From positions 1 to 64,000 of IMG/VR virus record IMGVR_UViG_3300025759_000062: 64,000 bases of DNA. One strand, given 5' to 3'. Positions 49,501 through 56,236 of this stretch are shown here, one piece after another (position 1 is the stretch's first letter; the number at the start of each line of letters is the position of its first letter). The position numbers and the translations under genes were made by a program. The DNA is from a virus. Its lineage: Duplodnaviria > Caudoviricetes. Below the pieces are notes generated by a model. The model did not search any database. It had not been told where the DNA came from and was given only the letters and a program-made list of their open reading frames with translations.

Positions 49501-51674
49501 GTATTAAACAAGTTCAAATGAGAGGTTGTGTAGAATTAATTGATCCTGTTAGTGCTCAACAAAAATTTGATTCTCAACCTATTTTTGCAGGTGATGTATA
49601 TATAAATAGATATACAGAAAAAACTATAATGCCAATTTTTGCTGATTTCTTAAATGGACAACCAGATGAATTTGTTTATGATTATTTGCAAAATGTAAAT
49701 ATACCTTACCCAAGATTCTGGATGAGTACTGCAAAATTTGATACAGCAGAATTAGCTGATGAAATTATAAGTTTTGGTTTGGCTTCTACTGAGAATTATA
49801 TGCCTAATGATTTATTCTATTTAGATAGAGGACCTTCTAGCATTAAAAGTGGATTAGGTGCAATATTTAATATGAGCAGTGATCCTAATAAAGTATTTGC
49901 AATGACTACTGCATATATGTATACTCATGTAAATGGTATACAGGATTTTTATGTTGAGTCAGAATATAACCTTGCACATAGAGACTGGGAAGATACTTCT
50001 TCTAAACGCCACTATGATTCAAATGTATTTACAGGTCTTAATACACTATTTCATGCAGACCATATTAAGGATGGTAACTTCTATAAATATGACTTGTCAC
50101 TAAGTGTATCTAAATTTGTGACACAAGTTACTTCTTTTGGTAATATTCAACCAAGAGATTATGATCCATATGTTGCAGAGAACTGTTATCAATACTATCC
50201 AAAAAGATTACTCTACTCTTTAAGAGCACAAGAAGAATCTAAGAAAGACTTTTGGAGAGTATTCTTACCAAATAATTATAAAGACTTTAAGACTAAGGTT
50301 AATATAATTAAACCTATTAGCAAAAGTGGTGCTATTATATTCTTTCCTTATCAGTCTCCTGTTATGTTCCAAGGTGTTGATCAATTACAAACAGACTTAG
50401 GAACTAAGGTTACAATAGGTGATGGTGGATTATTTAATCAACCTTTACAGAATATTGTAAACTCTGATTTATCAAATGAATACGGTTCATCAGAAAGTAT
50501 GAGAGGTGTAATTAATACTCCGGTTGGTGTATTCTATATATCACAAGCACAAGGTAAAATATTCCATTATACAGGTAAGTTAGATAATATTGCTAATAAG
50601 GGAATGAAACAATGGTTTAATAAATATTTACCATCTATTCTTATAAGACAATTCCCAGCATTAGAGCAAAGTCCTTTATCAGATAACCCAGTTATTGGTA
50701 TTGGATGTCAGGCTATATATGATCCTAATTATGATATAGTATACTTTACAAAGAAAGACTTCAAGATAAAGAATCAGTATGCTGGTTGTATTGACGGAAG
50801 AACGTCTGGAGAAAAGGTACCACAAGAATGTGTAGTATTTGAAAATGATCAATTTATTTTTAAACCATTAAGTGGAGGAGAAATACCAATTGATATAGGT
50901 GATCCTGTATTCTTTGAAGATGCATCATGGACAGTATCATATGATCCTAAAACAGGTTCTTGGATTTCATTCCATGACTGGCATCCTGAACTTGTAATGC
51001 CTAGTATTAATCATTTCTTTACTACTAAAACAAACCCAGATGTCAATGCTACTGATAGAGGAGGTATATGGAGACATAATGCAACATGTCAATTATATGC
51101 TAACTACTATGGTGAAGACTATCCATGGGAAGTAGAGATTATAGAAAACACTGGTCAAAATGTAATGACTCTTAGAAGTATTGAATATCAACTAGAGTCT
51201 TATATATACACTGGTGATTTACTAAATGGTTGTGGTGATGATAGATTTCATGATCTAGATTACAACTTTGATCAAGCTATTATTCATAACTCAGAGCAAG
51301 TATCTGGTTTATTAAAACTAGATCCACATCCAAAAGAAGATCCTTATGCAATGATCCGATACCCTCAAGTAGGATTTAATGATATTAGAATCTTATATTC
51401 TAAAGAAGAACAGAAGTTTAGATTTAATCAGTTCTATGATATTACTAATGACAGAGGTGAGTTTACAGCTGCTCAACAAAGTATCTTTAATACAGAAGTA
51501 AATGGGTATATTAGAAATCTAAACATACTTAATCTTAACTATAATAAAGAAGAGATTCAGCACAAGAAGTTTAGACACTACTACAATAAAGTTATTTTAA
51601 GAAGAATGAGATCTGGTAACAGAAAGATGCTAATGAAGCTTGCAAATACCAAGTTAAACCTATCATATAGATAA
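46563..51674 (+). CDS. Tail stabilisation / muzzle protein
   Basis: 1703 aa; KGMVKD...ARNA...IGNE start, GFMRDEQYSFFIRW, WTVSYDPKTGSWISFHDW; synteny. Confidence 0.8.
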   Translation: MAKKRRTSNKARSTTPKTQNTSTTDTRVFLKGMVKDSSASFQQKETWSHARNAINNSVDGDLGVIGNEPANISCGAAPYTIIGAIHLYADQWVIYSTDDVNSEIGRFDDSKCEYTTIVNDQCLQFNRKNLVVGAAKENFDCSWQVYWDDGHNPSRTLNIDNVPWKQIITSGNDPCVIYEDTNELDCEKIRLAPLLDTPCISMTKAESGGQLRNGSYQAFVAYTVNEQRVTDYIGVSNIQSLFDHAGTSGGVTINVSNLDKQFDYFELVLLSNNQEQTVAKRIGLYSTETSFIEIDYIDQSLVTVPLSQIPLRTPAYEKSDAMFVVNDYLIRKGPTEQFDFNYQPLANKIKAKWTVVEYDKDYYYKGGNKTGFMRDEQYSFFIRWIYNTGERSSSYHIPGRAPRANGFTQFLTPVNETGSAAGNLNALSSDEKNWQVYNTATKTQTLNTPLADGGVLIAKGDMAYWESTEKYSPIRPDIWGDLCGLPIRHHKMPSEETVLETQLTSPNGDKIRLLGVTFEDIQAPVDNDGNLLLNIVGYEILRGSREGHRSILAKGIFRNMREYTIPAGGQSLGNDKGLYPNYPYNDLRSDIFFHTGKPDANGEPTDARTDGADTFDDSLTNYPPLTGYKKDYFTFHSPELMFRRPFINAYETRIYGELSGDANGYFIPSENHPKNKLLRNGAAWIAGLIGIGYAIQRVKGKETYELEGLSNGFTSLINDTWGIIIGVGSGGGGSVPATGIAQTAVAGAAAAGAAATANGISNVVVNLLLDDLTSLGALYSGGASANRLNLQARNLINNAVATVPGVNSGKYTTRYSIDDPSGALPNVVNLFLGPLVARTNIAIGAQEIIDLFYNLIKDPSDFAYKHNSHGFYYDFKKLLSSQKYRTKNNNTNYLGSSFQEFGDYKVNNLFRPLTVAVATDDELDEPTTLDNSRYAIGGDSNSDWGDTYLEIPGRERKKSISALYGALKFEFENQYGQLDGIKQVQMRGCVELIDPVSAQQKFDSQPIFAGDVYINRYTEKTIMPIFADFLNGQPDEFVYDYLQNVNIPYPRFWMSTAKFDTAELADEIISFGLASTENYMPNDLFYLDRGPSSIKSGLGAIFNMSSDPNKVFAMTTAYMYTHVNGIQDFYVESEYNLAHRDWEDTSSKRHYDSNVFTGLNTLFHADHIKDGNFYKYDLSLSVSKFVTQVTSFGNIQPRDYDPYVAENCYQYYPKRLLYSLRAQEESKKDFWRVFLPNNYKDFKTKVNIIKPISKSGAIIFFPYQSPVMFQGVDQLQTDLGTKVTIGDGGLFNQPLQNIVNSDLSNEYGSSESMRGVINTPVGVFYISQAQGKIFHYTGKLDNIANKGMKQWFNKYLPSILIRQFPALEQSPLSDNPVIGIGCQAIYDPNYDIVYFTKKDFKIKNQYAGCIDGRTSGEKVPQECVVFENDQFIFKPLSGGEIPIDIGDPVFFEDASWTVSYDPKTGSWISFHDWHPELVMPSINHFFTTKTNPDVNATDRGGIWRHNATCQLYANYYGEDYPWEVEIIENTGQNVMTLRSIEYQLESYIYTGDLLNGCGDDRFHDLDYNFDQAIIHNSEQVSGLLKLDPHPKEDPYAMIRYPQVGFNDIRILYSKEEQKFRFNQFYDITNDRGEFTAAQQSIFNTEVNGYIRNLNILNLNYNKEEIQHKKFRHYYNKVILRRMRSGNRKMLMKLANTKLNLSYR

Positions 51675-56236: not shown

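Follow-up and report, generated by a model that had tools for sequence, protein, structure and literature searches.

A predicted cargo protein encoded behind the muzzle gene of an uncultured crAss-like phage is a mosaic of exchangeable modules with an N-terminal SET domain

The gene at 51674..56236 (+ strand) of the IMG/VR virus record IMGVR_UViG_3300025759_000062 is a single intact open reading frame (ORF) of 1520 codons that directly follows a gene for the muzzle protein of crAss-like phages. CrAss-like phages are among the most abundant viruses known. We analysed the first 64,000 nucleotides of the record, referred to here as the window; the source record comprises 117,277 bp and is rated 100% complete. 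Comparison with relatives shows that the predicted product, referred to as the cargo protein (and as X in related phages), consists of roughly twelve modules, each 75-230 residues long, that can be exchanged independently of one another; short seams of the types [Q/K]-x-G-G-[E/S] and LPKAQxG connect them. The gene product is probably a polyvalent protein that this uncultured crAss-like phage carries in its virion and ejects, and the gene occupies the position of the cargo protein C1 of PhicrAss001. Polyvalent proteins are described in the main text of Iyer et al. 2017 (PMC5512222) as phage proteins with many unrelated domains that are encoded beside virion genes and for which packaging and injection are predicted. 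An earlier note on this DNA had read the gene as an undescribed system, in which one injected polyprotein opens peptidoglycan and then delivers up to three protein-modifying chemistries. That observation is partly confirmed, in that its reading of the architecture is right, and its functional reading overreaches. The proposal of an undescribed system falls away because polyvalent proteins beside virion genes were already defined by Iyer et al. (PMC5512222).

The cargo gene stands among the late virion genes, a phage virion neighbourhood of the kind by which polyvalent proteins are defined. The genes that define this setting are as follows.

14313-16502, + strand: large terminase (TerL), in the same-strand block upstream of the cargo gene
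16505-19261, + strand: portal, in the same-strand block upstream
20739-22355, + strand: major capsid protein (Crass_capsid), in the same-strand block upstream
45006..45677, + strand: tail ring protein 2 (Pfam CrAss_Ring_2, E 5.1e-17; PHROG virion structural protein)
45677..46558, + strand: tail ring protein 1 (Pfam CrAss_Ring_1, E 1e-08)
46563..51674, + strand: muzzle protein, 1703 aa (Pfam crAss_MUZ, E 4.3e-33)
51674..56236, + strand: cargo gene (X), an ORF of 1520 aa whose ATG comes directly after the muzzle gene
56274..63821, + strand: three large genes in conserved order, d1 (617 aa), d2 (844 aa) and d3 (1032 aa)

The TAA stop codon of the muzzle gene and the ATG of the cargo gene overlap by one base (gataATGcaa, TAATG). 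The coupling of an intact gene to the muzzle gene at the crAss cargo position, which the earlier note had pointed out, is thus borne out, and the slot is the same as that of C1 in PhicrAss001. No terminator-like site was found on the + strand in 44001-64000, where nine sites, all on the - strand, were detected against 7.8 expected. The three genes 3' of the cargo gene gave no family match in Pfam or PHROG.

Relatives were collected at the level of proteins and of loci. A word-indexed search gave 96 homologous proteins of 840-2324 residues, and 66 IMG/VR loci were retrieved by a family alignment; scans of IMG/VR with a single sequence had given one contig. The gene order ring2-ring1-muzzle-X-d1-d2-d3 is kept in the related loci. 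A muzzle homologue lies directly upstream of X in all 57 evaluable loci, and the other 9 of the 66 have no upstream ORF in the locus. The length of X in these loci ranges from 546 to 2688 aa. As a measure of conservation, the median fraction of each window protein that aligns in the related loci was determined. It is 1.0 for ring2, 0.98 for ring1 and 0.99 for the muzzle protein, and it is 0.12 for X (range 0.03-0.71), 0.43 for d1, 0.67 for d2 and 0.94 for d3. The module content of X is therefore variable among relatives rather than invariant. The portal is 71-90% identical in 19 of the 24 related records, the other five being incomplete. The 96 homologues share segments of the cargo protein in a patchy way, often at an identity above 80% along one fifth of the length, with no match in the rest. 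Only residues 1-27 and the last ~65 residues are near-universal in the family.

From these comparisons the cargo protein divides into the following segments, all on the + strand.

51674..51754, + strand: N-terminal handle, residues 1-27 (GLPGGPNE core), conserved family-wide
51755..52033, + strand: predicted minimal SET lysine-methyltransferase module, residues 28-120 (Pfam, PDB, motifs)
52034..52348, + strand: NPDGSESTHLM...PTLF module, residues 121-225, conserved among relatives
52349..52573, + strand: linker region, residues 226-300, in 16/95 relatives
52574..53008, + strand: His-rich module M4, residues 301-445, ends QWWGNK..KKGG, rare
53009..53338, + strand: module M5, residues 446-555, begins LPKAQNG, in 5/95 relatives
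53339..53677, + strand: repeat copy R1, residues ~556-668, helical with a hydrophobic end (self-BLAST)
53678..54238, + strand: domain D1, residues 669-855, a segment of ~175 residues, conserved, no known family
54281..54619, + strand: repeat copy R2, residues ~870-982 (self-BLAST)
54626..55306, + strand: domain D2, residues 985-1211, rare module (homologue search)
55307..55543, + strand: TFGEAF...YGDRYTT module M6, residues 1212-1290, in 31/95 and 4/58 relatives
55544..56008, + strand: module M7, residues 1291-1445, PHROG 3108 (function unknown), E 3.8e-09
56009..56236, + strand: C-terminal tail, residues 1446-1520 and the stop codon (GGE...YDKLNR...PNYI)

The segments behave as separate modules, as the earlier note had expected, because homology to relatives starts and stops at shared joints. 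Breakpoints in homology occur at residues 119-130, 210-228, 296-304, 443-446 and 851-860, and further ones at residues 975-1001, 1205-1213, 1265-1271 and 1458. The joints are associated with Gly-Gly (GG) pairs. Within six residues of one of the ten GG pairs lie 43 of the 119 internal breakpoints, compared with 11.3 (standard deviation 8.7) at random (p ~0.004), and four of the ten pairs have at least two breakpoints nearby (p ~0.08); these p values are generous because the breakpoints share ancestry and are not independent. The motif [QK]xGG[ES] occurs four times in the cargo protein versus 0.1 times in shuffled sequences, and 74 times in 47 relatives versus 8.1 expected, an excess that is partly due to the conserved site in the tail. 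The seams also recur at the level of DNA. A repeat ending in ...GGTGGTGAA is found at 54214 and 55273, and the LPKAQxG seam is encoded by the repeat ACTACCTAAAGC.CA at 52303 and 53008. Single contigs from two other freshwater-labelled runs, one of DNA and one of RNA, stop matching the window at 52061, 54219/54253 and 55458/55490. These stops correspond to residues 130, 849/860 and 1262/1273, all of them module joints, each taken from one low-depth contig. The neighbouring gene d1 (56274-58127) is variable as well, with a length of 388 to 2090 aa in related loci (L004-L069), and it carries YQEGG, YKKGGE and SYGGE seams.

The N-terminal handle is present in 72 of 95 protein matches and in 47 of 58 locus ORFs, and its residues G12, L13, P14, G16, P17, N18 and E19 are nearly invariant. 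The module behind it had been called SET-like, and its assignment as a SET domain is confirmed by sequence comparison. The Pfam family SET (PF00856) matches residues 64-107 with 24.5 bits, above the curated cut-off of 22.4, and relatives give similar scores (P0012, P0013, P0017, P0019 and P0059). When residues 1-125 were compared with PDB sequences, all five matches were SET lysine methyltransferases. The best of these, vSET of PBCV-1 (1n3j), is a weak match (E 0.094) in two pieces that span both halves of the SET domain. Across 30 distinct homologous SET copies, conservation of the motifs G-x-G-x-F, IGLAH, HNH and E-l-TT-n-Y is at least 90%, and the cargo protein itself contains EGQGMF, HNH and ELTTNY, which align to vSET. 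We take G-x-G and N-H to be binding S-adenosylmethionine (SAM) and the Tyr of ELxxxY to be catalytic. Like vSET (A612L), the predicted domain is a minimal SET domain: it spans ~100 residues and has G-x-G, NH and the Tyr. However, vSET is a free histone H3K27 methyltransferase of 119 aa from a eukaryotic virus, whereas here SET forms the N-end cassette of a phage chain. Methylation by the SET module is plausible. Among the three chemistries proposed before, methylation thus has a tested basis, but ADP-ribosylation and acetylation rest on motif resemblance and were not upheld.

The slot behind the handle is occupied in one of two ways. Among 120 handle-bearing proteins a DUF5872-like module is found in 93 and SET in 27, and none has neither; in the window protein SET stands in place of the DUF5872-like module. 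Pfam DUF5872 is the standard module behind the handle in the cargo family (residues 41-109 of P0006; 140 of 202 proteins), and it also occurs at the C terminus of short proteins with domain D1, such as P0110. The cargo family thereby gives DUF5872 a setting. In one relative (L029:8001-12641), a CxxC...CxxC zinc-ribbon-like insert follows the DUF5872-like N-terminal module and lies between two GG seams. An assignment of the module at residues 121-225 as DUF5872-like was wrong, since DUF5872 matches the alternative N-terminal module at residues 41-109 of P0006.

To survey what the relatives carry, Pfam domains were counted in 47 non-redundant complete X proteins. LysM was found in 24 of these, YkuD in 18, SLT in 17, PG_binding_1 in six, ART-PolyVal and SET in two each, and Amidase_2, Phage_lysozyme and Peptidase_M91 in one each. 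Family members with SET, LysM and SLT, or with ART-PolyVal, SET and an M91-like domain, clearly combine disparate activities in one polypeptide. Peptidoglycan opening, which had been proposed for the window protein, is thus seen in relatives (SLT, LysM, YkuD) and is not documented in the window protein itself.

The central part of the cargo protein contains two internal repeats. The earlier note had picked them out, and self-BLAST confirms them, with 36% identity between residues 558-672 and 872-985 (E 4e-20). With a hidden Markov model (HMM) of the repeat, the unit was found in 50 of 97 family proteins, twice in nine of these. The C-terminal ends of the two copies are the most hydrophobic stretches of the protein, with Kyte-Doolittle hydropathies of 1.43 at residues 636-654 and 1.2 at residues 950-968. 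A different domain, D1 or D2, stands behind each copy in the cargo protein, and in unrelated proteins (P0138, P0146, P0140, P0121, P0133 and P0102) the repeat or its C-terminal half adjoins D1.

D1 is the one new element here, being widespread, confidently modelled and enzyme-like, with no family or fold match. A HMMER search of 1.84 billion cluster representatives gave 51 matches at E<=1e-3, 18 of them at E<=1e-10. Nearly all cover the full segment of ~175 residues, in proteins that range from 75 to 2203 residues. In an alignment of 56 sequences R698, Q704, F744, Y754, E773, E808, P812, P842, W844 and G847 are invariant, and conservation is at least 96% at Y681, N684, G703, G741, S802 and L811; a separate alignment of 30 sequences gave the same conserved set. 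The AlphaFold2 model has a mean predicted local distance difference test score (pLDDT) of 84.0 and a predicted template modelling score (pTM) of 0.75. It shows an alpha/beta fold with five strands, on which R698, F744, E773 and E808 are located. Judged by this conservation and by the model, D1 is probably an enzymatic domain of no known family. D1 also recurs in the post-muzzle genes of more distant phages, as muzzle-like ORFs lie upstream in three of five further loci. By BLAST, a muzzle gene is directly upstream in L090 and L093, L091 has muzzle-like fragments, and L092 and L094 have none.

The earlier note had named D1 as a domain resembling ADP-ribosyltransferases (ARTs). The segment is a conserved domain, yet neither Pfam nor profile or fold comparisons linked it to ARTs, and membership of that family was rejected. 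Pfam gave no family for D1 in the cargo protein, nor in two sets of proteins with D1, one of 10 short ones and one of 30, and a D1 profile against PDB sequences found nothing at E<=10. Foldseek gave no match at E<=1e-3 in PDB (35 at E<=10) or in BFVD (79 at E<=10). In hhalign, comparison with an ART-PolyVal profile built from relatives gave a probability of 0.13%. The top PDB row in Foldseek is the ART toxin TreTu, which is insignificant (E 1.2, template modelling scores 0.22/0.32). The four nearest named clusters in a language-model Atlas are all ARTs, with scores of 0.79-0.81 that serve as leads only. Compared with the R-S-E/H-Y-E triad of ARTs, R698 and E808 (in EF-I-L-P) are invariant, but the middle S-T-S is not conserved, with F744 the only constant residue there. 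The LYRA-like and E-F-I-L-P motifs resemble ART strands 1 and 5, which is a similarly weak lead. ART-PolyVal and D1 co-occur in seven proteins. We put a kinship of D1 with ARTs at about one in three.

D2 is a rare module. There are 11 homologues among 5.8 billion proteins, all inside long polyvalent-type proteins, and three more were found locally. N1052, P1053, A1056, G1057, K1069, L1081, S1082, D1084, S1085 and R1092 are invariant in eight diverse copies. D2 had been suggested to be GNAT-like, and this was not established by Pfam (no match), the Atlas (no usable match), a profile search of PDB (irrelevant matches only) or fold search. The AlphaFold2 model of R2 and D2 has a pLDDT of 49.5. 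Foldseek with this low-confidence model found nothing at E<=1e-3, and its list of six GNAT rows, seven RNase H rows and others carries no weight because of the low pLDDT.

M7 had been read as a lysozyme-like domain, and its only match is PHROG 3108. Membership of the SLT/lysozyme families is not supported, as there is no Pfam SLT match, hhalign against the SLT domains of relatives gives 0.25-0.8%, and an M7 profile finds no lysozyme in PDB. Nine diverse copies of M7 keep M1323-E1324-N1325, AY, R-x-YT, MSID, R..Y, LP and Y....YN. M7 and SLT are mutually exclusive: M7 is found in 21 and SLT in 53 of 202 proteins, and none has both. M7 always ends 11-75 residues from the C terminus, and SLT ends 85-110 residues from it in 20 of its 53 occurrences. 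With the same slot in front of the tail and strict exclusion, M7 may functionally replace SLT.

The remaining modules differ in how widely they are distributed. The NPDGSESTHLM module singled out by the earlier note is real and conserved, but it has no Pfam match and belongs to no known family; it is present in 49 of 95 protein matches and 17 of 58 locus ORFs, and it is 87% identical to residues 122-200 of P0006. The linker holds a Gly-rich amphipathic stretch (residues 279-297, hydropathy 0.76). M4 occurs in none of the census relatives (0/95, 0/49 and 0/58), and its single other homologue among 5.8 billion proteins is P0147, which is 74% identical. The C-terminal tail is found in 72 of 95 protein matches, with the motif GGE...Y..Y..G...YDKLNR...PNYI over the last ~65 residues, and its Y, D, K, L, N and R are invariant in 20 genomes. 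The prediction of a complex between the portal and the tail gave a score of 0.01 against a mark of 0.32, which counts neither way on binding.

The closest described counterpart by position is in PhicrAss001, where gp45 is cargo protein C1, encoded by the gene after the muzzle gene (gp44), and gp46 is cargo protein 2 (Bayfield et al. 2023, PMC10172136). According to the main text of that paper, gp45 was found in virions by mass spectrometry, where its residues 214-245 occupy the tail barrel and its residues 425-552 sit on the portal, and it was proposed to exit from the N to the C terminus ahead of the DNA. Cargo sets differ across crassviruses according to the same authors (PMC10172136). As with C1, the cargo gene of the window lies immediately 3' of the muzzle gene and is followed by further large genes. 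The cargo protein has 1520 aa and gp45 has 842 aa, and the main text gives no description of gp45 as an enzyme or as modular (PMC10172136).

The cargo protein is like the polyvalent proteins of Iyer et al. in being one long chain of unrelated domains that is encoded beside late virion genes. Their repertoire, as given in the main text, includes lysozyme, peptidoglycan-directed and ART domains, and the relatives studied here carry Pfam ART-PolyVal (PMC5512222). Unlike those proteins, it contains no embedded zincin-type peptidase and no MuF or portal fusion that we could find, and it differs further in its fixed N- and C-terminal handles, its recurrent Gly-Gly seam and its one fixed locus behind the muzzle gene. 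A precedent for injection of a protein-modifying enzyme is T4 Alt, a head-packaged, injected ART that modifies host proteins (PMC5512222, main text); Alt is a single-domain ART, and no module of the cargo protein is shown to be one. Neither 'crAss' nor 'SET domain' occurs in the main text of PMC5512222, and, supplements aside, we found no paper in which Crassvirales are connected with polyvalent proteins, or a SET domain with a phage virion protein.

The composition of the cargo protein is in line with ejection. There is no Cys among the 4013 residues of the cargo protein and the next three genes (1520, 617, 844 and 1032 aa; 51674-63821), and the mean Cys content of 58 related X proteins is 0.165%. 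The muzzle protein has 15 Cys and the ring proteins have four and eight. The absence of Cys fits proteins that unfold, cross a narrow channel and refold outside the cytoplasm.

Several observations weigh against the view that the cargo protein is an ejected polyvalent protein. The Cys-free signature is not specific to ejected proteins, because the major capsid and scaffold proteins also have no Cys. A hydropathy scan found no segment at the usual transmembrane level (maximum 1.43), unlike the helix predicted for gp45. Neither gp45 nor gp46 resembles the cargo protein in sequence (best E 3.9-8; BLASTP with gp45, best E 8.0), and no similarity was found to gp040-042, the virion proteins encoded behind the muzzle gene of Cellulophaga phage phi17:2, so the link of the cargo protein to C1 is positional only; the repeat HMM likewise found nothing in gp45. 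SET is the one recognised enzyme family in the protein, beside several conserved modules, and no activity is assigned to D1, D2, M4 or M7. Pfam, hhalign and PDB profile searches revealed no peptidoglycan-active domain. The presence of the tail in 58 of 58 locus ORFs is circular, because the IMG/VR loci were retrieved with the C-terminal motif.

If the cargo protein is indeed an ejected polyvalent protein, which we infer from synteny, it would be made late, together with the tail genes, and the N- and C-terminal handles would fix the chain in the particle. By analogy with C1, the N-terminal end would lie in the tail barrel and the C-terminal end in the capsid. When the muzzle opens, the chain would be threaded out unfolded, from the N to the C terminus, ahead of the DNA. 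The modules would then refold, and in most relatives they would bind or cut peptidoglycan through LysM, SLT and YkuD. In the window phage they would deliver SET, the enzyme-like D1 with its R/E/E residues, and others against host proteins. Recombination at the seams would reshuffle the load between co-occurring phages.

Three other explanations were weighed against the ejected polyvalent protein. The protein could be an ejectosome or tail lysin that serves only to cross the envelope, with SET, D1 and D2 periplasmic or structural and with no cytoplasmic target. The recognisable domains of relatives are mostly peptidoglycan-directed, as the domain counts show, and M7 fills the SLT slot of relatives and never stands alongside SLT. 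In PhicrAss001, gp45 and gp46 are expected to form a trans-envelope channel (PMC10172136, main text). The catalytic motifs of SET are nevertheless retained over the 30 copies, the conserved R/Q/E/S/E set of D1 is typical of an enzyme, relatives carry ART-PolyVal, and the window protein itself has no detectable wall-binding or wall-cutting domain. SAM would be available to a SET domain only in the cytoplasm. On balance, a role in envelope crossing alone is rather unlikely. It is very improbable that the product is a non-packaged late protein, for lysis, lysis from without or secretion as a polymorphic toxin against competitors, that merely shares the tail operon. The exchange of C-terminal and internal modules as cassettes, and a conserved repeat before variable domains, do recall polymorphic toxins, and the wall-active domains of relatives would also suit lysis. 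But the gene always stands behind the muzzle gene and ahead of the large conserved genes that come next (57/57), it is translationally coupled to the muzzle gene, the N terminus has no hydrophobic stretch like a signal peptide, and no small immunity-like gene comes next, the following ORF having 617 aa. A non-packaged protein would also leave the conserved handles at both ends unexplained.

The chain could also be a true polyprotein whose Gly-Gly seams are cut, within the particle or inside the host, so that the modules become separate effectors, which is what the earlier note had assumed. The seam motif occurs far more often than expected and coincides with the borders of modules. Processing at Gly-Gly-X is found in virion polyproteins of other viruses. 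For polyvalent proteins, processing by embedded peptidases is described by Iyer et al. (PMC5512222). However, peptidases of the families C48, C39, S78, S77 and ClpP (PF02902, PF03412, PF04586, PF03420 and PF00574) were not found in the complete 117,277-bp genome, with the limit that for PF03420 the control matched nowhere, so that this negative carries little. The cargo protein itself matches no peptidase family in Pfam. The genome thus offers no candidate enzyme that would cut the seams. The terms 'protease', 'proteolytic' and 'cleav' do not occur in the main text on PhicrAss001 (PMC10172136), and a flexible hinge or micro-homology for recombination accounts for the same motif. Cleavage into separate effectors is quite improbable on this evidence.

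Taking the cargo protein as an ejected polyvalent protein, a broader proposal can be made, which we regard as tentative and somewhat doubtful. The post-muzzle gene might be a general platform for cargo loading, in which the 27-residue handle and the 65-residue tail load any small, Cys-free, refoldable domains, the GG seams allow these to be swapped, and D1 is a new enzyme superfamily for takeover or anti-defence. Within the virion block of one environmental clade, no gene varies more than the first cargo gene, whose ends are constant. A variable middle with constant ends is the pattern expected of a delivery scaffold under arms-race selection. The candidates that emerge are an injected SET methyltransferase, the unclassified, enzyme-like D1, and M7 as a possible substitute for SLT. 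If the handles and seams work as proposed, they would show how phages package foreign proteins.

The phage belongs to a divergent, uncultured crAss-like lineage, because the closest annotated muzzle proteins are merely 24-28% identical to that of the window. They come from Leptolyngbya phage Lbo-JY46, csAssE-Sib, Cellulophaga phages phi17:2 and phi4:1, and Flavobacterium FpV4. The whole cargo protein gave no match by tblastn in 50,697 phage records, and one irrelevant match (E 0.58) in PDB sequences. The public runs that hold the cargo gene are labelled as freshwater or sediment metagenomes. Contigs of two metatranscriptome runs (X19 and X20) match the muzzle, cargo and downstream genes (49000-59000) at 99% or more; these matches were not counted as expression because carry-over of DNA is possible.

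Three further genes were noted upstream of the tail ring genes. The last domain of a 1392-aa protein (35143-39321) is an intramolecular chaperone of the Peptidase_S74 family (residues 1285-1339, E 8.8e-15), an end that is typical of self-cleaving tail fibres or spikes. Between the fibre genes and the ring genes, an ORF of 701 aa (40310-42415) contains 24 Cys (3.4%) and has no Pfam or PHROG match. Just before the ring genes, a gene resembling DNA repair exonucleases (43155-44375; PHROG 704, E 6.5e-40) lies within the virion block.

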